From the IMG/VR virus record IMGVR_UViG_2695420540_000010: a stretch of 11,545 nt of DNA, one strand, 5' to 3'. This document shows positions 419-11,545 of the stretch, one piece after another; positions within the stretch are counted from its first letter, which is position 1; each line of letters opens with the position of its first letter. The notes below the pieces were generated by a model. It was not told where the DNA came from, ran no database searches, and saw only the letters and a list, made by a program, of their open reading frames with translations. The position numbers and the translations under genes are program-made. Source of the stretch: a virus. Taxonomy: Duplodnaviria > Heunggongvirae > Uroviricota > Caudoviricetes.

Positions 419-754
419 ATGAAGTGGATTGTGATTGATACAGTTATCCAGCCATCATGCGGAATATCTTTTTCAGTCATATGGAGTAAAATAAAATTAA
501 TAATCTGGTATCAATCGGATGCTTTCTTACCTCCTGAAAGTATATTTACACTGACTCACACAGGCATCATGCTCAATAACAAAGTGCTACCTGTAACCAT
601 TTACAACGTAGTACCATTCAATAAAACATTCTGGAATTCAATCAAAAATAGCCAGGAATGCCCTACAAATACAGATAACGTATTGAATGAATGCTTTAAT
701 AACCGTTGCACTCTGCAAATATGTCCTTATGGACTAAAACAACAAAGTCCATAA
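419..754 (+). CDS. Hypothetical 111-aa protein in an AT-rich island, opposite in orientation to the rest of the region; possible moron/cargo gene
   Basis: ATG start with AGGA about 8 nt upstream (acaaggaaactaaATG). Local GC roughly 32-38% by hand count of two lines, against about 50% elsewhere. Five Cys residues. No family recognised. Confidence 0.4.
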
Positions 755-790
755 GGAGTTTACTCACATCTGACAAAATCAATATAAACA

Positions 791-1010
791 GCCCCTCCGG
801 AGAGGGGCTGGAGAGTGGCGCTATGTGCCATTGCATGGTGCCGGGTGCCTCCCGGTGAATTCAGTACCAGCACCTGAATCCGCGATTATCCCATATACCT
901 ACTCGCTGATTGCCCCTCCGCACAGGGGGATTCACCATGCCAGTTTCTTTTAACAAACTCCCCGCAAACCAGACAACAGTCAACCGCCTGAATTGTGAAG
1001 TATTTAAAAA
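791..1010. repeat. Copy A of a ~220-bp repeat (near-identical to copy C at 2414..2635)
   Basis: Direct comparison: the sequence from gcccctccggagagggg through ggtgccgggtgcctcccggtgaattcag and cccctccgcacagggggattcaccatgcc to tttaaaaa recurs with only a few substitutions. Confidence 0.85.
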
Positions 1011-1201
1011 TTTCTCCCGCTAACTGATACCCGGCTAACAGTCTGGCGTTTTCTTTTTCAGCAACGGGAAAGCAACAACCACCACACCCGCCACCAGCAC
1101 ACCGTCAGCCAGCACTGACATTATCCGGCTGCTGCAATGCCATTCACAAAAACAGTAAGCAATCACTTTTTACCGTAACAGGTGATAATCCAGATATGTA
1201 T

Positions 1202-1528
1202 CTACCCCAGATGAGTAATCCGAAGTTCATCCATACCACAGGTCCTGGCTATTCTGTTGTACTCCTGAACAAGAGCAAATAATTCTGAATTAGCAACCAT
1301 GAACTCATCGCAAACCCTCTGTATAGCATCACTATTCAGAATAATAACGTCTCTTCCCGAAAGACGATCAGGAGTACAGAACAAAACTGTCAAACGGCTG
1401 AAGGCCTTTGCTCGTGCTGCATTGACTATATCAATACGCTGCCTAAGGATGAAACACCCCGACGCCTCATCAATATTCACTCTACCCACACCATATGAAT
1501 GATAAATATTTAATGCTGAAAAAACCAT
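1202..1528 (-). CDS. Hypothetical protein (108 aa from the ATG; the track ORF extends to a TTG at 1555)
   Basis: Open frame on the late-transcription strand between the tRNA-Arg copy and repeat A. No convincing Shine-Dalgarno for either start and no recognised family. Confidence 0.3.
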   Translation of the reverse strand: MVFSALNIYHSYGVGRVNIDEASGCFILRQRIDIVNAARAKAFSRLTVLFCTPDRLSGRDVIILNSDAIQRVCDEFMVANSELFALVQEYNRIARTCGMDELRITHLG

Positions 1529-1665
1529 TAGACCGTATAACAAACACTCAATCAATACTTAACAGAACTTTTATTTTTGACAAACATAAAATATTTTCAA
1601 CAATATCCTGAGCCAGGTATATTTCAGTATAAGGCTCTGCCGGAAGGAATCTGGAAGAATGAATA

Positions 1666-1742
1666 TGGCGCGCTGTACTGGATTCGAACCAGTGACCGAT
1701 TGCTTAGAAGGCAATTGCTCTGTCCGGCTGAGCTAACAACGC
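1666..1742 (-). tRNA. argO: tRNA-Arg (anticodon UCU), second copy, beside a scaffold gap
   Basis: Reverse complement folds as a 77-nt cloverleaf: acceptor GCGTTGT, D-stem GCTC/GAGC, anticodon stem ATTGC/GCAAT with loop CTTCTAA, T-arm ACTGG-TTCGAAT-CCAGT, encoded CCA. Differs from the copy at 2668..2744 by one base (1673), giving a G-U pair at 4:69. Confidence 0.8.
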
Positions 1743-1885
1743 TGAATACCGATNNNNNNNNNNNNNNNNNNNNNNNNNNNNNNNNNNNNNNNNNNNNNNN
1801 NNNNNNNNNNNNNNNNNNNNNNNNNNNNNNNNNNNNNNNNNGCCAGCTGAAATATTACTTCACGTTTTATTGTTTATTCCTTGCC

Positions 1886-1914
1886 GCCCGCGTCTCCCAG
1901 CGCGGGCTTTTTTT
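1886..1914 (+). terminator. Rho-independent terminator on the plus strand
   Basis: 7-bp GC stem gcccgcg/cgcgggc with loop tctcccag, followed by seven T (1908-1914). Confidence 0.55.
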
Positions 1915-1918
1915 GCCC

Positions 1919-1944
1919 ACAAGAAAACCCCTCCGGAGAGGGGC
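1919..1944 (-). terminator. Candidate intrinsic terminator on the minus strand (hairpin at the start of repeat copy B)
   Basis: Palindrome cccctccggagagggg (6-bp GC stem, loop cgga) followed on the minus strand by ttttcttgtg. Confidence 0.4.
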
Positions 1945-2160
1945 TAAAGCCGCGTATCTGTATCATCATGCACATGGTGCCGGGTGCCTCCCGGTGAGTT
2001 CAGCCCGGTGCCACTAAACCCGCGTCATTCTCGTTTTGATAATCAGAGATTATACCGTCACCAGTCGCCCCTCCGCTCAGGGGGATTCACCATGCGAAAT
2101 TTTTTTAACAAATGCCCAGTCTGACAGGCAACTGTCAACTTACTGAATTGTGAGCAACAT
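1927..2160. repeat. Copy B of the ~220-bp repeat (divergent)
   Basis: Shares the blocks cccctccggagagggg, ggtgccgggtgcctcccggtga, cccctccgc.cagggggattcaccatgc and ctgaattgtga in the same order as copies A and C, with many substitutions and indels. Confidence 0.7.
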
Positions 2161-2189
2161 AGCATTTAACGGGGAACCTGTTTTCTGCA

Positions 2190-2218
2190 GTAAAAAGGCC
2201 CACCGGAGCGGATGGGCC
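2190..2218 (-). terminator. Candidate intrinsic terminator on the minus strand
   Basis: Hairpin ggccca-ccggagcgga-tgggcc followed on the minus strand by TTTTT (plus-strand A-run 2192-2196). Confidence 0.4.
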
Positions 2219-2405
2219 TGGAAGGATAGCGGTCATGTGATGCCGGTTTCCCGGTAACTCAGCACCGGTATCTGAGTCAACGTTTTCTCTACTGGGTCAT
2301 TTCCGATACGCCCTGCCTGCTGACAGGCTTTCATCACATCTGAAAATATAGCACCCTGACTGATACTGTAGTACCTAAGGTTCCAGAAACTGTGATGTAT
2401 CCGGC

Positions 2406-2430
2406 ACAGAAAAGCCCCTCCGGAGAGGGC
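2406..2430 (-). terminator. Candidate intrinsic terminator on the minus strand (hairpin at the start of repeat copy C)
   Basis: Near-palindrome gcccctccggagagggc followed on the minus strand by cttttctgtg. Confidence 0.35.
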
Positions 2431-2635
2431 TGGAGAGTGGCGCTATGTGCCATTGCATGATGCCGGGTGCCTCCCGGTGAATTCAGTACCAGCACCTGAA
2501 TCCGCGATTATCCCATATACCTACTCGCTGATTGCCCCTCCGCACAGGGGGATTCACCATGCCAGTTTCTTTTAACAAACTCCCCGCAAAACAGACAACT
2601 GTCAACCGTCTGAATTGTGAGACATTTAAAAAAAA
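2414..2635. repeat. Copy C of the ~220-bp repeat, immediately downstream (minus sense) of tRNA-Arg(UCU)
   Basis: Near-identical to copy A (791..1010) by direct comparison. Confidence 0.85.
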
Positions 2636-2667
2636 GGCCCGCAAAAGCGAGCCAGGGAAAATAAGTG

Positions 2668-2744
2668 TGGCGCGTTGTACTGGATTCGAACCAGTGACCG
2701 ATTGCTTAGAAGGCAATTGCTCTGTCCGGCTGAGCTAACAACGC
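2668..2744 (-). tRNA. argO: tRNA-Arg (anticodon UCU)
   Basis: 77-nt cloverleaf on the minus strand with a fully paired acceptor stem GCGTTGT/ACAACGC, anticodon loop CTTCTAA, T-loop TTCGAAT and encoded CCA. Confidence 0.88.
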
Positions 2745-2757
2745 ATGATGCAGATAA

Positions 2758-2834
2758 TGGACCGCCATCGGGGACTTGAACCCCGCGCAGCCAGCTTCGA
2801 AGGCTGGCGCTCTTTCCTGATGAGCTAATGGCGG
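2758..2834 (-). tRNA. argN: tRNA-Arg (anticodon read as UCG)
   Basis: 77-nt cloverleaf: acceptor CCGCCAT/ATGGCGG, D-stem GCTC/GAGC, anticodon stem CCAGC/GCTGG with loop CTTCGAA, T-arm CGGGG-TTCAAGT-CCCCG, discriminator U, encoded CCA. The argN name rests on its position in an ileZ-argN-argO-type trio. Confidence 0.8.
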
Positions 2835-2841
2835 TATGTGA

Positions 2842-2917
2842 TGGTGGCCCTTGCTGGATTTGAACCAGCGACCTGGCGATTATGAGTCGCTCGCTCTCAC
2901 CACTGAGCTAAAGGGCC
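2842..2917 (-). tRNA. ileZ: tRNA with anticodon CAU, most likely tRNA-Ile2 (lysidine type) rather than tRNA-Met
   Basis: 76-nt cloverleaf GGCCCTTTAGCTCAGTGGTGAGAGCGAGCGACTCATAATCGCCAGGTCGCTGGTTCAAATCCAGCAAGGGCCACCA. Closely resembles the E. coli ileX/ileY tRNA-Ile(CAU) sequence as I recall it. Confidence 0.8.
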
Positions 2918-2957
2918 GGGAGCCGCATAATAACGACGCGTAATTAATTCTTCAATA

Positions 2958-4016
2958 TCATCCGTTCTGGCTGACTAAATCCTGTACTTCCCGAACCGTC
3001 TGCTCAAAACGTTCAGTCTCCAGCTCAACGCCAATTGCACGACGCCCGAGCGCCAGTGCCGCTTTCACTGTCGAACCCAACCCCATGAAAAAATCTGCAA
3101 TCAGGTCACCCGGACGACTGCTAGCGCTGATTATCTGCTGCAGCATTTCTGCCGGTTTTTCGCACGGATGTTTCCCGGGATAGAACTGCACCGGTTTATG
3201 CGTCCACACATCGGTATACGGCACCTGCACCGTCACGCCAAAATACCGCCGCAGATGTTTATATTCACTCAGCAGCTCCGCATACTGCCGGTTCAGTGAG
3301 GTATACGTATCCACCAGCTGGTGGTGGAGCTTTTCCAGTTCACCACGCCGATGCTTCTCTTCTGCCACCCGGGCAAACAGCGCCTGTAATTTCAGATAAT
3401 CGCTTTCATTCGGCAACTGCCACTGACCGGCACTGAACCAGTGCGACACCATGTTTTTCTTTCCTGTGGCATCTGCAATCTGTTTTGCCGTTATCCCCAG
3501 GGCAGCTCGCGCATCACGAAAGTAAGAAATCAGCGGGGCCATCACATGCTGTTTCAGTGCACTGCCCTTCGCCGCATACCCGGCATCTTTCGGACGATAC
3601 GGCCCCTGATAATGTTCCGCGAACAGAATGCGCTCTGTGGCGGGGAAATACGCCCGCAGGCTTTCCTTGTTGCATCCGTTCCAGCGTCCGGACGGCTTCG
3701 CCCAGATAATATGGTTCAGCACACTGAAGCGTTCACGCATCATGATTTCGATATCAGATGCCAGGCGATGACCACAGAACAGGTAAAGACTTCCGGCAGG
3801 TTTCAGCACCCGCCAGAACTGCGCCAGACACTGGTCCAGCCACTTCAGGTAATCATCGTCGCCCTTCCACTGGTTATCCCAGCCCTCAGGCTTCACTTTA
3901 AAGTACGGCGGGTCCGTGACTATCAGGTCAACAGAATTTTCGGGTAACGACCGGATAAATTCCAGGCAGTCGGCGTTGATTAACTCACAACTGGATATTT
4001 TTACAGTATTAAGCAT
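2958..4016 (-). CDS. DNA methyltransferase, beta-class amino-methyltransferase (N6-adenine or N4-cytosine), apparently orphan
   Basis: 352 aa. Motif IV DPPY near the N-terminus (IVTDPPYF) and the SAM-binding FxGxG motif I near the C-terminus (DFFMGLGST), the circular-permuted order of beta-class enzymes. No restriction endonuclease candidate nearby. Confidence 0.8.
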   Translation of the reverse strand: MLNTVKISSCELINADCLEFIRSLPENSVDLIVTDPPYFKVKPEGWDNQWKGDDDYLKWLDQCLAQFWRVLKPAGSLYLFCGHRLASDIEIMMRERFSVLNHIIWAKPSGRWNGCNKESLRAYFPATERILFAEHYQGPYRPKDAGYAAKGSALKQHVMAPLISYFRDARAALGITAKQIADATGKKNMVSHWFSAGQWQLPNESDYLKLQALFARVAEEKHRRGELEKLHHQLVDTYTSLNRQYAELLSEYKHLRRYFGVTVQVPYTDVWTHKPVQFYPGKHPCEKPAEMLQQIISASSRPGDLIADFFMGLGSTVKAALALGRRAIGVELETERFEQTVREVQDLVSQNG

Positions 4017-4163
4017 GGATCATTAAGCCTGTCTCTGATAGGCTCATTCTGCTTTTGCGCAAAGCAGTGGGCCTGAGGTTTGCTTGTGAACCCAACGCAT
4101 GAGCAGATGGCTGGTGGGTGNNNNNNNNNNNNNNNNNNCCCCCACCAGCCGCCCATTTACCAC

Positions 4164-4191
4164 AAATAAAAAAGCCTTCACTGCGGAAGGC
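4164..4191 (-). terminator. Candidate intrinsic terminator on the minus strand, overlapping the stop of the 65-aa ORF
   Basis: Hairpin gccttc-actgcg-gaaggc followed on the minus strand by ttttttatttg. Confidence 0.45.
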
Positions 4192-4375
4192 GTCTGTAAC
4201 AACCGAACTGATAGTCTGCCAGACCCGCCATAACCAGCTGGGTCAGTATTAACTGGCAGCGTTCGCGTGAAAGGTAAGTATTCTGCGCTATCTCCCCGAC
4301 TGTCGCCGGTTCGGTAACGCTTAATTCATTAAACACCACTCTGGCGGTTTCTGTCATATCCTGCTGTTTTAGCAT
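4178..4375 (-). CDS. Small (65 aa) putative helix-turn-helix DNA-binding protein
   Basis: ATG start with GGAAAA about 5 nt upstream. Segment TVGEIAQNTYLSRERCQLILTQL looks like a helix-turn-helix. Sits between the Q candidate and the methyltransferase. Confidence 0.5.
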   Translation of the reverse strand: MLKQQDMTETARVVFNELSVTEPATVGEIAQNTYLSRERCQLILTQLVMAGLADYQFGCYRRLPQ

Positions 4376-4558: not shown

Positions 4559-5314
4559 TTATGACGAATTTACCACAGATTCCGGAAAAATCAACCTAGT
4601 TACCTTTTTTAACTGCCGCTCAGCCCATGCTTCTTCAATATCAAACCGGGTCACCAGCGCATCATAAAATTTCTTAACTGTTTTTTCCCATGACGCGCGT
4701 GTTATCTGGTTTGTCACCTCGCATATAGCATTAAATGCCTCCGTTGATGGTAGTCTTTCATAGCCACGACCACCACAACGCTGGCAGTCTCTGATAACAG
4801 GCATACCACGTTTTACCGACTCTTCACGATGAATGGCGACACCACGCCCACGGCAATCCTTACAGGCGGTGGAAACCTCACCCTTTCCGCCACACTCCGG
4901 ACAGGCAACTTTTACCACCTCCCTGACTTTTTTCCATTCTTCCCAGTAAGACGGATACACACCTTTCGTACACTTTGCCCATACCGGCGGCTTACCATCC
5001 GGATACTGGATCTTGTTTGTAAAAACCTCGCTTTCAATAAATTTTTTTCCGTGACAGCAGGGGCACTGTTTTTTGCTCGCCGCGCTACGGGCATAATCTT
5101 CAAACGCATACGAAGCCATAATACGCATCACTGCCGGTTTTATTTCTGCCGGGAGTTTTCTTAACGCCGCCACGCGATCACACCGACTGAGTGCATATTC
5201 TGTCAGCAATTCTGTTGCCCGCTCTCTGTCATTCATACTAATGCCCATTTTCCCAAGGAACGCAGAAACCCCCATCTCAGCCCGATTCTGTGTCATGCCC
5301 TGCGCGGCCATCAC
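4559..5314 (-). CDS. Putative late-gene antiterminator Q-family protein (QuuQ/YdfT-like) with DnaJ-type CxxCxGxG zinc-finger repeats
   Basis: 251 aa (GTG at 5314, ATG at 5311). Lies downstream of rusA and upstream of a terminator and the tRNA cluster, the Q position in lambdoid phages. Contains CPCCHGKK, CPECGGKG, CKDCRGRG and CQRCGGRG. Family assignment is from context and memory. Confidence 0.5.
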   Translation of the reverse strand: MMAAQGMTQNRAEMGVSAFLGKMGISMNDRERATELLTEYALSRCDRVAALRKLPAEIKPAVMRIMASYAFEDYARSAASKKQCPCCHGKKFIESEVFTNKIQYPDGKPPVWAKCTKGVYPSYWEEWKKVREVVKVACPECGGKGEVSTACKDCRGRGVAIHREESVKRGMPVIRDCQRCGGRGYERLPSTEAFNAICEVTNQITRASWEKTVKKFYDALVTRFDIEEAWAERQLKKVTRLIFPESVVNSS

Positions 5315-5754
5315 ATCAGTGATACTCAGCGCATCTTTCGACGTTGAGGCCGATGCATCAGTCAGGCCGGGGGATTTTGGGGAGTAGTATTTCGGTAAAT
5401 CTTCNNNNNNNNNNNNNNNNNNNNNNNNNNNNNNNNNNNNNNNNNNNNNNNNNNNNNNNNNNNNNNNNNNNNNNNNNNNNNNNNNNNNNNNNNNNNNNNN
5501 NNNNNNNNNNNNNNNNNNNNNNNATGCGCATCACTACCGGTTTTATTTCTGCCGGAAGTTTTCTCAACGCCGCCACACGATCGCACCGACTGAGTGNNNN
5601 NNNNNNNNNNNNNNNNNNNNNNNNNNNNNNNNNNNNNNNNNNNNNNNNNNNNNNNNNNNNNNNNNNNNNNNNNNNNNNNNNNNNNNNNNNNNNNNNNNNN
5701 NNNNNNNNNNNNNNNNNNNNNNNNNNNNNNNNNNNNNNNNNNNNNNNNNNNNNN

Positions 5755-6097
5755 GGTAAATCTTCACCCCCAGACGTCCACCAGATACTGGCTGACCACG
5801 AACGATATTGATTTCATCAAACTGCTCATCGTCCATTAACACTCCCGCATGTGTCAGTGCATCCAGTGGTGCTTTCAGGATATTGTCCAGGTCACGACGG
5901 CGCTTATCCGGTGGCTCTGCAATAATCTTTATCGCCAGTCTTCCGGACAGGCTTAATTTCAGTCGCTGCTGACGGACAATAAGCGCCACATCCCGGCGAT
6001 AACGCTCACCGGCTTTTGATACAAAATATGTGTTGTCACGACGTCGCCAGTAAGTATTCACCGTCGGCGGATAAGGTAAAATAAACTCATGGCGCAT
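5755..6097 (-). CDS. rusA: Holliday-junction resolvase RusA (3' end lost in an N-run)
   Basis: N-terminus MRHEFILPYPPTVNTYWRRR and the motif PPDKRRRDLDN match the RusA family (E. coli RusA has PDRRRRDLDN). Start overlaps the upstream stop as TGATG. Confidence 0.75.
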
Positions 6098-6339
6098 CAG
6101 CGCAGCACCTCCTGCACCAGTTTTTCAAACTTTCCGACTCTGGTTTCCAGCTCTGCCACACAGTCCACCAGCTCATCTACTGCTTTCTGTGCGCGATGCT
6201 TCGCCTGCATCAGTTCCCGAAGCGCGGGTACCATATCTTTACGGATAGCGTCTTTTGTTATGCCCGTTTTTTCGAGTTGTTCAGCATGACGCAGCATTTC
6301 CTGCGCGTGTTTACGCAATTGTTCAGGGGTAAAAGTCAT
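6097..6339 (-). CDS. Hypothetical helical protein (80 aa from the ATG; track ORF starts at a TTG at 6354), translationally coupled to rusA
   Basis: Its stop overlaps the rusA start. Sequence is rich in E/K/R/L/A. No family recognised. Confidence 0.45.
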   Translation of the reverse strand: MTFTPEQLRKHAQEMLRHAEQLEKTGITKDAIRKDMVPALRELMQAKHRAQKAVDELVDCVAELETRVGKFEKLVQEVLR

Positions 6340-6565
6340 TGTCTGGTTGTTCAAAAGAAACGCTCCATCTTACTGCTGTCAGTTCGTTTATTACTGTATC
6401 TGCGCGGATTGCCGGGCTTCATGGGAGTGGAAAGCACCCGTGCACTTTCCTGGTCCACAGGCAGAAAATGTCCGTAGACTGGCCCCCTGAATCTCCAGAC
6501 AACCAGTATCACTTAAATAAGTGATAGTCTTAATACTAGTTTTTAGACTAGTCATTGGAGTACAG

Positions 6566-8245: not shown

Positions 8246-8260
8246 NNNNNNNNNNNNNNN

Positions 8261-8462
8261 GCTTATCCGGTGGTTCTGCAATAATTTTTATTGCCAACCT
8301 TCCGGACAGGCTTAATTTCAGCCGCTGCTGGCGAACAATAAGCGCCACTGCCCGGCGATAACGCTCCCCGGCTTTTGATACAAAATATGTGCTGCCACGA
8401 CGACGCCAGTAAGTGTTCACCGTCGGCGGGTAAGGTAAAACAAATTCTATGCGCTCGGTCAT
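8261..8462 (-). pseudogene. rusA: Second rusA copy, N-terminal 67 codons only, cut off by the N-run next to the IS21 element
   Basis: MTERIEFVLPYPPTVNTYWRRRGSTYFVSKAGERYRR...IIAEPPDK. Roughly 90% nucleotide identity to 5886-6097 by eye. Its ATG directly follows the upstream stop (TAAATG). Confidence 0.6.
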
Positions 8463-10348: not shown

Positions 10349-10504
10349 TTACTCCTCAGGTTCGTAAGCTGTGAAGACAGCGACCTCCGTCTGGCCGGTT
10401 CGAATTCGTACCTCGCAGAGGTCTTTCCTCGTTACCAGTGCCGTCACTATGACGGTTAAACAGATGACGATCAGGGCGATTAACATCGCCTTTTGCTGCT
10501 TCAT
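10349..10504 (-). CDS. hokD: Hok/Gef-family type I toxin (HokD/RelF-like, 51 aa); the in-frame 70-aa extension to 10561 is a Mok-like frame
   Basis: MKQQKAMLIALIVICLTVIVTALVTRKDLCEVRIRTGQTEVAVFTAYEPEE matches the Hok family, and HokD as I recall it. AAGGAG lies 9 nt upstream. An upstream in-frame ATG at 10561 has its own GAGG. Confidence 0.85.
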   Translation of the reverse strand: MKQQKAMLIALIVICLTVIVTALVTRKDLCEVRIRTGQTEVAVFTAYEPEE

Positions 10505-10795
10505 AGCCTGCTTCTCCTTGCCTTTCGGCACGTAAGAGGCTAACCTAGATTTGCCGTTCATAGATTGAGCCTCAGATTAATGTTAAGCGTCTTGCCGGAC
10601 GCGTAATGTTAACTGGGGCTTTTCTCTATCTGCCTTTTGGTGTTCATGCCTGAGACAGATAGCCTCAAGCACCCGCTGCAATTCTACTTAACTCTCCTTT
10701 TCCCGCAAACCGTTTTTATCCCCAGCGGCAAATCGAATACACCACCAGCGCCACCGCCATCGCAATTCCTACCGTTGTTAATGCTTCAGGCCAGG

Positions 10796-11314: not shown

Positions 11315-11545
11315 TTAACCCGCAGTGCTTTCAACTGATGAGGGGAACAAAATCTTTTCATCAAACCCTGCATTCATATCATGAACAGCAACACACCAAT
11401 CCATCGACGAACGATTATCAAGAGCCTCCATGATTTCATCCATGCGGCGTAGGTCATACAGGTAAATGCTTTTATCGCCAATGGTGTAAAAGCCAATTTT
11501 TTTCGGTGATGGATGAGGTGTACTGGCAATAGCGGACACTACCAT
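11315..11545 (-). CDS. Hypothetical 76-aa protein whose start codon is the last three bases of the window
   Basis: ATG to TAA open frame, followed 10 nt later by the next gene with a strong SD. No family recognised. Confidence 0.5.
   Translation of the reverse strand: MVVSAIASTPHPSPKKIGFYTIGDKSIYLYDLRRMDEIMEALDNRSSMDWCVAVHDMNAGFDEKILFPSSVESTAG

Follow-up and report, generated by a model that had tools for sequence, protein, structure and literature searches.

STnc100 (Rfam RF02076), a Salmonella/enterobacterial prophage RNA, is among the most frequently annotated bacterial small RNAs (sRNAs) and adjoins Shiga-toxin genes. In E. coli O157, where it occurs downstream of stx2B, the family has already been described under the names EcOnc27 (Sakai) and sRNA103 (EDL933), and it is related to PasD1 and PasD2 of EPEC. 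For EDL933, eleven STnc100 loci have been listed with RNA-seq reads tabulated per locus and a Northern blot for STnc100_4 (PMC5331693), and EcOnc27 has been observed by Hfq crosslinking and by Northern blot (PMC4104026, PMC7873438). PasD1 and PasD2, the EcOnc13 homologues of EPEC E2348/69, have likewise been seen by Northern blot and form RIL-seq chimeras at their last ~50 nt, with UGUGAG in the linker as the predicted seed (PMC8550237), and a supplementary table of the same study shows that their RNA-seq levels barely change upon deletion of hfq (log2 fold change of +0.5 and -0.2). A shared origin of PasD and STnc100 has been proposed (bioRxiv 10.64898/2026.05.13.724894). Variants located just upstream of STnc100, or in its first bases, have a statistical link to HUS. 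The papers on STnc100 call its function unknown or hypothetical, with no direct target or phenotype shown for any copy, and our literature searches found no functional study of EcOnc13, EcOnc06 or EcOnc51.

The window analyzed here, a stretch of 11,545 nt from a virus of the Caudoviricetes, contains a repeated ~220-bp element that an earlier note on this DNA did not recognise as a named one. An Rfam search identifies it as STnc100, a prophage small-RNA gene that is already known (RF02076; EcOnc27/sRNA103, related to PasD). When membership is defined as at least the gathering score of 47 bits over the full model, copies A, B and C are all members, with scores of 132.4, 161.0 and 123.6 bits, respectively, each spanning model positions 1-206 of 206. 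The window copies are also like the described family in sharing its fold and in being multi-copy per genome. The three copies of the earlier note are all real, but a fourth, D, had been missed (Table 1). Unlike the others, D remains below the gathering score at 30.1 bits (E 4e-4) and is not a member by the score criterion; it lies outside the seed and is recovered by our own core model R1 (38.4 bits, E 1.7e-6). R1, which was built from 7 sequences, scores A, B and C at 122.9, 107.9 and 120.2 bits, respectively, and also recovers PasD1 and PasD2 in EPEC. Copy D, which folds like the other copies, is a fourth and diverged family member, and the window holds four related minus-strand STnc100 copies. 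The possibility that D is a PasD orthologue was rejected, given an identity of 52.7%.

Regarding the relationships among the copies, A and C are indeed near-identical (94% gapless, 805-1023 vs 2427-2645; 92% over ~245 nt with gaps), and B is a diverged relative as had been proposed, with ~65% identity overall and an 88-nt block at 78-82%. The palindrome CCCCTCCGGAGAGGGG that each copy was said to carry is exact in A (at 792) and B (at 1928) but is one G short in C (at 2415). Read in the minus-strand sense, each palindrome makes a GC hairpin with a T-rich run behind it, as the terminator scan confirmed. The suggestion of a repeated small RNA, on the minus strand and with its own terminator, is supported.

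Table 1. Features of the STnc100 region, in window coordinates.
Feature	Position	Strand	Evidence or detail
STnc100 copy A	780-969	-	core 828-945; extended -10 TGTTAAAAG 947-955; terminator 789-810
Conserved upstream block of copy A	970-1023	-	with TTGACT; repeats and alignment
43-aa DUF3927 protein, moron-type ORF	1035-1166	-	ORF list; RefSeq annotation of 99.6%-identical L003
117-aa hypothetical protein, moron-type ORF	1202-1555	-	ORF list; RefSeq annotation of 99.6%-identical L003
Second tRNA-Arg(UCU), argO'	1666-1742	-	ARAGORN; on the other contig, which ends 11 nt on at an N-run
Scaffold gap, 88 N	1754-1841	.	between the A/argO' contig and the B-D-C contig
Convergent sRNA-like gene	1860-1915	+	faces copy B; terminator 1886-1907 plus T7
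STnc100 copy B	1915-2124	-	core 1967-2100; extended -10 TGTTAAAAA 2102-2110; terminator 1926-1945
Conserved upstream block of copy B	2125-2160	-	CTCACAATTCAGTAAGTTGACAG; repeats and alignment
Family member D	2190-2363	-	core 2230-2344; extended -10 TGCTATATT 2345-2353; terminator 2196-2219
STnc100 copy C	2402-2591	-	core 2455-2562; terminator hairpin 2413-2431, palindrome one base short
Extended -10 candidate of copy C	2569-2577	-	TGTTAAAAG; falls within the Rfam match, near its edge
Conserved upstream block of copy C	2592-2645	-	CTCACAATTCAG..TTGACA; repeat families and alignment
Intrinsic terminator right after argO	2636-2653	-	GGCTCGCTTTTGCGGGCC plus T8; parts the tRNA operon from copy C
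Phage tRNA cluster	2668-2917	-	ARAGORN, Rfam tRNA, RefSeq annotation of L002
tRNA-Arg(UCU), argO	2668-2744	-	ARAGORN
tRNA-Arg(UCG)	2758-2834	-	ARAGORN
tRNA(CAT), tRNA-Ile in RefSeq relatives	2842-2917	-	ARAGORN

The window contains five N-runs, with A and argO' located on one contig (1-1753) and B, D and C on another (1842-4120). RusA, Q, argO and STnc100 A/C each occur twice, the two copies being on different contigs with at least one N-run between them, and these duplicated positions form two interleaved collinear series. The order of the scaffold was found in 0 of 5,426 complete E. coli genomes. A search of species-representative genomes for the exact junction (argO' flank, 72-102 N, B flank) also gave 0 matches, which carries little weight as the gap length is estimated and each species contributes one genome. 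Since the duplicates are on different contigs, and their order is seen in no complete genome, there are probably two loci, one with C-D-B and the other with A. The window probably interleaves pieces of two paralogous prophages in a draft scaffold, and for this reason the adjacency of A and B is probably a scaffolding artefact. The picture of three copies and a duplicated tRNA within 1.9 kb therefore holds for C, (D) and B, which are contiguous, but A and the second argO probably belong to another prophage. Similarly, both tRNA-Arg(UCU) genes are present, but their apparent sharing of one locus is probably a product of scaffolding. For this window the record is corrected in two respects, with an "unnamed" repeat becoming a catalogued sRNA family and its layout becoming, probably, in part a scaffolding artefact.

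The N-runs, the four split and interleaved duplications, the order missing from finished E. coli genomes and the empty search across the gap could also be taken to mean that the whole cluster is an assembly artefact, in which the assembler duplicated a single element and a single argO. This is very improbable, however, as C-D-B and ileZ-argN-argO are on one gap-free contig, and the 1.1-kb C-D-B stretch is present to at least 80% in 319 records of complete E. coli genomes, the best of which cover all of it at 98-99% identity. The contig with A is itself collinear with 863 finished genomes at a coverage of at least 80%, and argO' is contiguous with Q'-ileZ in loci L003 and L069. Furthermore, A and C differ at ~8% of positions and argO' and argO at 11% over 101 nt (1653-1753 vs 2655-2755, 89% identity), indicating that both pairs are true paralogues. 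Doubt is thus limited to the adjacency across the 88-N gap, and the copies do not collapse to one, an outcome for which the earlier note had allowed: C, D and B follow one another without a break on a single contig, and do so in many finished genomes as well. Its suggestion of recombination between lambdoid prophages at the element was also upheld, as in loci L001 and L069 a single A/C copy forms the joint between a 042-type left side and an O121-type right side. Being near-identical and located at cassette boundaries in different prophages, the copies probably also serve as crossover points that shuffle cassettes.

All copies have the RF02076 fold, in which a long-range helix P1 closes a junction with hairpins P2, P5 and P6, and a terminator stem-loop follows. 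The minimum free energy (MFE) folds of A, B and D, which were obtained independently, show this same architecture; that of A equals the consensus (z -2.8), D has a z of -2.7, and in both A and D the fold leaves the linker unpaired. Covariation was assessed in alignments that were fitted to the covariance model and hence lean towards it, and in these 91.2% of pair cells are standard among 102 distinct viral-contig homologues, relative to ~45% when the 3' partners are slid. In this set both partners vary at 19 of the 25 pairs, and none of 500 shuffles attains the observed values. The 136 distinct species-representative homologues have 91.4% standard pairs, with 20 of the 25 pairs changing on both sides. 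The homologues were collected by an exact match to P6, the invariance of which consequently carries no information, and Rfam helices P3 and P4 were left out as implausible or poorly conserved. The model-fitted alignments replaced a MAFFT alignment of fixed 230-nt windows that was too divergent (median identity of 34%). Resemblances to CsrA-type GGA loops and to a tRNA-like T-arm were dropped by eye, as the motifs were either not conserved or did not fit. Variation between copies is found in the linker and not in the core. Conservation lies in the structured core rather than in the presumed seed, a pattern that is uncommon among base-pairing sRNAs and hints at a different activity.

The argument that the plus-strand reading frame is not conserved, and that the element is therefore not a protein gene, also stood up to analysis, and protein coding was rejected. 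There is a Shine-Dalgarno-like GGGAGG located 11 nt before an AUG in P1 that opens frames of 28-46 codons in A, B and C, this AUG being the first codon of ORFs 696-836 (46 aa) and 1874-1975 (33 aa), some EDL933 copies have ribosome footprints with a ribosome coverage value of up to 3.2 (PMC5331693), and PGAP places pseudo-CDSs here, on the opposite strand. It is nevertheless exceedingly improbable that the element encodes a small protein or a dual-function RNA, as only 10 of 136 species-representative homologues retain the AUG that follows GGGAGG, the share of 121 homologues in which any one frame stays open never exceeds 22%, a 1-nt deletion puts C out of frame with A, and the substitutions in the helices are compensatory rather than codon-like.

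Each copy resembles a complete sRNA gene of its own, with an extended -10 promoter, a covarying core, a linker of ~25 nt and an intrinsic terminator. A simple sigma-70 scan of the window returned no promoter for A, B or C, and the promoter call for these copies is consequently based on the extended -10 element, on a family-wide peak and on the PasD 5' end. Specifically, A, B and C carry a TGnTAAAA(G/A) with its last base at -13. Among 193 distinct upstream sequences, a strict criterion finds a -10 hexamer ending 11 nt (range 10-13) before the TGAAUCC anchor in 30, which is a peak relative to the ~1 match at each of the other positions. PasD1 is reported to begin at the first base of P1. Transcripts from the window copies would likewise start at or next to this base, with predicted 5' ends of GCAUGG for A, B and C and AUGUGAUG for D, which places the putative start ~29 nt downstream of the 5' end of the RF02076 model. 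The CTCACAATTCAGTAAGTTGACAG block upstream of B is about the same as that found upstream of the copy in Sakai Sp5. At the other end, the terminator scan found a terminator in all four copies, and 125 of 238 homologues have a hairpin and T-run past P6, the median distance being 32 nt. The U-tails are short or interrupted (A UGUUUAUAUU, B UUUUCUU, C UUUUCU, D UUUUUAC), with copy A having a poor one (GCUGUUUAUAUU).

PasD1 and PasD2 are like the window copies in their first bases (GCAUGGUGAAUCC...), in having a P1-closed core (31 bits with R1), in their length of 172-173 nt with a terminator at the end, and in being located after a DUF3927 gene and before esterase or holin genes. They are unlike them in that their identity to A-D is 53-60% and that P6 is lost in PasD. 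Copies A-D also lack the UGUGAG linker and have only the core fold in common with PasD, and none of them is a PasD orthologue; given this difference in linker, a different set of targets is to be expected.

The window also has the convergent partner arrangement described for STnc100, here for copy B. In Sakai, the Sp5 copy located downstream of stx2B (208 bits) faces AsxR. The element at 1860-1915 is like the anti-sRNAs AsxR and AgvB (RF02703/RF02702), the convergent partners in the prophage sRNA dyad, in position, orientation, length (~55 nt) and a terminator that faces the STnc100 terminator, but its 3' region is unrelated in sequence to the conserved ~42-nt 3' region of those families, and it instead matches the unnamed EPEC RIL-seq candidate E2348C_1409.E2348C_1408.IGR at 49 of 52 nt. 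Neither AsxR nor AgvB has an Rfam match at E<=5 within 700-3000, whereas AsxR is detected at 88 bits in the Sakai control, and the assignment of the plus-strand partner to either one was rejected. A further comparison is with lambda 6S RNA and StxS, which are also short, constitutive, terminator-ended RNAs of the lambdoid late leader, StxS being Hfq-binding as well. These RNAs sit at pR', whereas the STnc100 copies are 1.6-3.8 kb downstream of Q in the scaffold with promoters of their own, and no sequence or model similarity between the two groups was found. A reading of the element as a pR'-tR' short transcript was rejected, as there is no Rfam match next to Q and the copies lie beyond the methylase and tRNA genes with their own promoter-like sites.

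Collinearity with the annotated loci L001-L003 and with Sakai locus L004 places the copies in the lambdoid late-regulatory (moron) region between Q/pR' and the lysis genes, as in described STnc100 loci. They are co-directional with Q, methylase, tRNA, esterase and holin genes, which is the direction of the Q-dependent late operon. The element does not always adjoin argO: the Sakai Sp5 copy follows stx2B, and the copies in EPEC, where the DUF3927 gene also precedes PasD1 and PasD2, and in E. coli 042 follow a DUF3927 gene, whereas the window copies follow the tRNA cluster and the DUF3927 gene. Both moron-type ORFs of the window are between argO' and copy A (1035-1555). A tRNA is present within 1.5 kb upstream of 43 of 142 viral-contig copies and of 16 of 141 species-representative copies, and all tRNAs within this distance share the strand of the element.

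The four copies are paralogous STnc100 genes in the late-operon leader, after the antiterminator gene Q and ahead of the lysis genes, and we consider it likely that they function as self-contained, Hfq-linked pairing sRNAs. Each copy would be its own minus-strand transcription unit driven by a sigma-70 promoter of the extended -10 type, and in the lysogen would make a stable RNA of 155-180 nt comprised of a core of ~110-135 nt (the P1 junction with P2, P5 and P6), a variable single-stranded linker of ~25 nt, and a GC hairpin with a U-run. By analogy with the published expression, Hfq binding and linker seed of the homologues, this RNA may associate with Hfq, with the terminator hairpin and U-tail as the Hfq module, and may pair with other RNAs through its variable 3' linker. 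The STnc100 terminators may also close the neighboring moron cassettes, namely the tRNA operon and ORF117/DUF3927, and during lytic growth Q-modified RNA polymerase would be expected to read through them.

This last activity could conceivably be the main one, with the elements being cis-acting terminator or insulator modules that keep transcripts begun at moron promoters (those of tRNAs, stx and others) out of the lysis genes in a lysogen; the short RNAs would then be by-products that are inactive in trans. A GC hairpin and T-run end every copy, the copies occur at 3' cassette boundaries (after argO, DUF3927 and stx2B), tandem copies would sum to tighter termination, and terminator-like sites are strongly enriched within 700-3000 (14 found vs 2.1 expected). 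A terminator needs only ~30 nt, however, which leaves a covarying core of ~120 nt and its own promoter unexplained. In addition, argO has its own terminator ahead of copy C, Pantoea cores abut without a terminator between them, and Hfq binds homologues, which are also found in chimeras with mRNAs (PMC4104026, PMC8550237). A mainly insulating role is thus rather improbable, and the Hfq-linked pairing sRNA remains our preferred reading.

Conservation of the core raises a different alternative, which is that the core is a modular binding domain, acting as a decoy or sponge for a protein or a conserved host factor, or a cis element of the late transcript, with pairing by the linker being secondary. 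Among species-representative genomes, at least 120 loci across Enterobacteriaceae, Erwiniaceae and Yersiniaceae have the 20-mer TCACCGGGAGGCACCCGGCA without a mismatch, although this count was ascertained by the same motif. The helices covary while the junction and loop bases are fixed, the linker is what varies between copies, and cores can form head-to-tail arrays with a spacing of 2-11 nt. Against this, no partner is known, PasD is abundant and Hfq-associated without P6, D has a different P6 loop, and the arrays may have arisen by unequal crossing-over without any function. We regard such a binding domain as unlikely. There is a small but real chance that the invariant core is an autonomous binding module or cis element and that the Hfq-linked pairing of PasD/EcOnc27 is a secondary, lineage-specific add-on of the linker. 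If so, lambdoid prophages across the Enterobacterales would carry one to six or more copies of this module, and arrangements such as C-D-B or the abutting Pantoea cores would raise its dose.

The covariation-supported core, the family-wide promoter position, the putative start at P1 and the head-to-tail core arrays could aid work on the function of STnc100. Finally, the RefSeq pseudo-CDSs that run across STnc100 genes are an annotation error worth fixing.

An Rfam search assigned the repeats to RF02076, 'Gammaproteobacterial sRNA STnc100' (gathering score 47), with full-length matches to copies A, B and C and a fourth copy, D, recovered in a permissive scan (see table). As a control, the intergenic region 3' of stx2B in the O157 Sakai prophage Sp5 was identified as STnc100 at 208 bits, directly opposite AsxR on the other strand. 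Membership of the window repeats in this family is close to certain, and the element, which the earlier note did not recognise as a named one, is not new, being a member of a known family in a known context. Weak matches to the same model at 2624-2729 (-) in the window and at 4956-5060 (+) in the Sakai Sp5 locus extend over the 3' half of the tRNA gene argO and over its terminator (16 and 19 bits, E 1.5 and 0.35) and are probably due to chance; the sRNA does, though, contain GGUGAAUCC, which is similar to the tRNA T-arm GGUUCGAAUCC.

The family was originally catalogued in Salmonella, for which Boutet et al. credit Sittka et al., 2008. EcOnc27, an sRNA that crosslinks to Hfq in O157 Sakai, is encoded 3' of stx2B and converges with AsxR (EcOnc02); at least eight Sakai prophages have such a convergent sRNA pair at the 'moron' insertion site downstream of pR' (PMC4104026, PMC7873438). 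In EDL933 the same sRNA is known as sRNA103, and its overexpression increases fimZ and espA transcripts by a mechanism that is not known (PMC7873438, PMC12711010). A table of RNA-seq reads covers each of the eleven STnc100 loci listed in EDL933; a Northern blot confirmed STnc100_4, and ribosome footprints are seen on some copies (PMC5331693). A 2026 preprint reports that prophage STnc100 adjoins PasA, PasC and PasD and proposes a shared origin of PasD and STnc100 (10.64898/2026.05.13.724894). The EPEC members PasD1 and PasD2 are Northern-confirmed sRNAs of 172-173 nt whose RIL-seq chimeras map to the last ~50 nt, with a predicted seed of UGUGAG (PMC8550237 and supplements). The function of STnc100 is not established in any of these works.

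At the sequence level, repeat comparison, palindrome positions and ARAGORN confirmed a repeated, hairpin-bearing element accompanied by two tRNA-Arg(UCU) genes. Positions 805-1023 and 2427-2645 form an ungapped direct repeat of 94% identity, and an 88-nt block (912-999, 2067-2154 and 2534-2621) is common to A, B and C at 78-82% identity. With gaps allowed, identity between A and C is 92% over ~245 nt, and B is ~65% identical to each. The palindrome CCCCTCCGGAGAGGGG is present exactly at 792 and 1928 and without one G at 2415, and each reads on the minus strand as a GC hairpin followed by a T-rich run.

Coordinates of STnc100 copies, inferred RNAs, tRNAs, neighbouring genes, duplicated segments (series Y, O121-like; series X, 042/L069-like) and Pantoea arrays
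Feature	Coordinates	Strand	Basis
STnc100 copy A	780-969	minus	RF02076 full-length match, 132 bits
STnc100 copy B	1915-2124	minus	RF02076 full-length match, 161 bits
STnc100 copy C	2402-2591	minus	RF02076 full-length match, 124 bits
Copy D, between C and B	2190-2363	minus	permissive Rfam scan, 30 bits, E 4e-4
Inferred RNA of A	~940 to 786	minus	
Inferred RNA of B	~2095 to 1920	minus	
Inferred RNA of C	~2562 to 2408	minus	
Inferred RNA of D	~2339 to 2193	minus	
tRNA-Arg(UCU), argO'	1666-1742	minus	ARAGORN
tRNA-Arg(UCU), argO	2668-2744	minus	ARAGORN
tRNA-Arg(UCG)	2758-2834	minus	ARAGORN
tRNA(CAT)	2842-2917	minus	ARAGORN
DNA methyltransferase	2958-4016	minus	collinearity with annotated finished genomes
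Q	4559-5404	minus	collinearity with annotated finished genomes
RusA duplicate	Y 8261-8454; X 5902-6095		
Q duplicate	Y 5121-5193; X 5524-5596		
argO duplicate	Y 2655-2755; X 1653-1753		
STnc100 A/C duplicate	Y 2427-2645; X 805-1023		
Pantoea core array, L202	4386-4759	minus	
Pantoea core array, L163	945-1993		
Pantoea core array, L189	6396-7022		
Pantoea core array, L197	3232-3605		

A covariance model restricted to the core was built from a seed of seven sequences (A, B, C, the Sakai copy and three units of one diverged viral contig), in which helix P1 closes a junction carrying hairpins P2, P5 and P6 (118 positions, 25 pairs). This model scores A, B and C at 108-123 bits, and finds D, which was outside the seed, at 2230-2344 with 38 bits (E 1.7e-6). 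In EPEC it matches PasD1 and PasD2 exactly at their mapped sites (31 bits, E 6e-6), with the first base of P1 being the reported PasD 5' end. Among 102 distinct viral-contig homologues, in an alignment fitted to the model, 91.2% of pair cells hold standard pairs, a share that falls to 44-48% after sliding the 3' partners by 1-3 columns; both sides change in 19 of the 25 pairs, and none of 500 column shuffles reached the observed values. A second model-fitted set of 136 distinct species-representative homologues from many genera gave 91.4% standard pairs and both-side changes in 20/25 pairs. Invariance of P6 is uninformative since the homologues were gathered through an exact P6 match. Model-free minimum free energy folds of the single sequences A, B and D have identical architecture (z of -2.8, -1.3 and -2.7), which D reaches with nearly all helix sequences different. 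A protein-coding element is ruled out, as no more than 22% of 121 distinct homologues keep any one reading frame uninterrupted through the core and the AUG that follows a GGGAGG motif in E. coli copies is retained in only 10 of the 136 species representatives. Thus, covariation, folds and broken frames bear out the earlier suggestion of a repeated small RNA, and the element is an RNA and not a protein. RefSeq/PGAP places pseudo or hypothetical CDSs opposite the STnc100/PasD core in the O121-type relative (L002 6607-6732, +), the 042-type relative (L003 6526-6651, +) and L125 (2301-2699, -), with zero ncRNA annotation at these loci; the CDSs are likely spurious calls over sRNA genes.

Strict sigma-70 promoters whose -10 hexamer ends 10-13 nt (mode 11) upstream of the TGAAUCC anchor were found in 30 of 193 distinct upstream sequences, and other end positions gave about one match each. 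This family-wide position implies that transcription begins at the first bases of P1, consistent with PasD. The same strict scan of the window returned no promoter for A, B or C; these copies carry TGTTAAAA(G/A) ending at -13, and D has TGCTATATT immediately 5' of P1. Farther upstream, A, B, C and the Sakai copy have CTCACAATTCAG..TTGACA in common, which is too distant from P1 to be the -35 of its promoter. A hairpin with a T-run lies 3' of the core past a variable linker (median 32 nt after P6); 125/238 homologues passed a strict terminator test, and a terminator scan found one in all four window copies, which are likely independent transcription units. A T/C SNP at +90 and a T deletion at +103 are reported to be absent from HUS-associated stx2a phages (PMC12711010). 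Both map to TTTGTTAAAAAAATTTC in Sakai Sp5 (L004 6436-6451, 88-103 nt after stx2B), which we, rather than PMC12711010, read as the putative extended -10 and discriminator of the STnc100 promoter.

The window contains five N-runs (1754-1841, 4121-4138, 5405-5523, 5597-5754 and 8246-8260). An O121 chromosome is collinear with contig 1842-4120 and its continuation to 5404; the 1.1-kb stretch of this contig with B, D, C and three tRNAs is at least 80% covered in 319 complete-genome records, the best at full coverage and 98-99% identity. E. coli 042 matches contig 1-1753 at 99.6% identity, and 863 complete genomes cover at least 80% of this contig. The full order of the scaffold was not found in any of 5,426 complete E. 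coli genomes. The query is covered to 87-91% in three records; in one of these (L001, H1) a single A/C copy joins the two sides as argO'-ORF117-DUF3927-[A/C]-D-B-esterase, and the matching region of the other two is only ~1.74 and ~1.79 kb long versus 2.2 kb in the window, compatible with the same collapsed layout. Four segments are duplicated, with the X and Y copies always on separate contigs at least one N-run apart, and the two series are interleaved, each collinear in itself. Viral contig L069 matches X pieces 5524-5596 and 5755-6538 at 100% identity and holds RusA, Q' (the second Q piece), ileZ, argO', ORF117, DUF3927 and STnc100 as one contiguous stretch. Two paralogous prophage regions have therefore probably been threaded into a single scaffold. 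The C-D-B tandem array is real, but the adjacency of A and argO' to this array is probably a scaffolding artefact, as is largely the clustering with a duplicated tRNA described in the earlier note; A and argO' are real paralogues that probably lie elsewhere in the genome. At the DNA level the A/C element also serves as a crossover site, as seen in the recombinants L001 and L069. L069, a near-identical viral contig, holds two A/C-type copies (2719-2908 and 4827-5016) and an IS600 copy (3087-4345) inserted in D just 5' of its terminator. The window ends (1-31 and 11514-11544) form a perfect 31-nt inverted repeat unlike homologous prophage sequence that matches the IS600 terminus of Shigella flexneri plasmids at 100%, indicating that the scaffold is bounded by two inverted IS600 copies and suggesting a draft from Shigella or an IS600-rich E. 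coli.

On the minus strand, Q is followed by a small ORF, the methyltransferase, ileZ-argN-argO, a terminator (2636-2653) and C, D and B; SASA/NanS-p esterase, holin and lysozyme come next in the O121-type relative. Copy A lies downstream of argO', a 117-aa ORF and a DUF3927 ORF, with an iraM-like anti-adaptor gene (419-754, +, 111 aa) convergent with it, as in E. coli 042; a DUF3927 gene is also upstream of PasD1 and PasD2. After the iraM-like gene comes an esterase gene truncated by IS600, of which the N-terminal DUF1737 part remains at 1-159. Opposite copy B is a plus-strand, sRNA-like element of ~55 nt (1860-1915; terminator 1886-1907 plus T7), identical at 49/52 nt to the unnamed EPEC RIL-seq candidate E2348C_1409.E2348C_1408.IGR (predicted seed CUUGCG). 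The Rfam scan ruled out AsxR and AgvB for this element, so the convergent 'dyad' layout is retained with a partner that is neither. STnc100 itself is not tied to argO, as a tRNA lies within 1.5 kb upstream of only 43/142 viral and 16/141 species-representative copies, invariably on the same strand and mostly Arg(UCU). Two to four motif-bearing copies fall within 700 nt in 22 clusters, and several contigs have four to six Rfam matches. In Pantoea genomes and one Pantoea plasmid, cores stand head-to-tail, some only 2-11 nt apart and terminator-free between, with an extended -10 TGCTATTAT in some units and none in others. Such an arrangement suggests an autonomous core module.

Taking the fold, promoter and terminator placement and context observed here together with expression, Hfq binding and seed location as drawn from homologues, we propose that each copy is probably an independent sRNA gene whose product would associate with Hfq and pair through its variable 3' linker. 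We give even chances to Hfq-linked base pairing as the main activity; against pure base pairing, the conserved part is the core, and cores can be arrayed without intervening terminators, which leaves room for a binding-module function. STnc100 terminators may also close neighbouring moron cassettes, and Q-modified polymerase would read through them.

Finally, the sok antitoxin RNA was matched over its full Rfam model at 10499-10674 (-, 112 bits), adjoined by a hok-type gene as in related prophages (hokD in the annotation of L001-L003).
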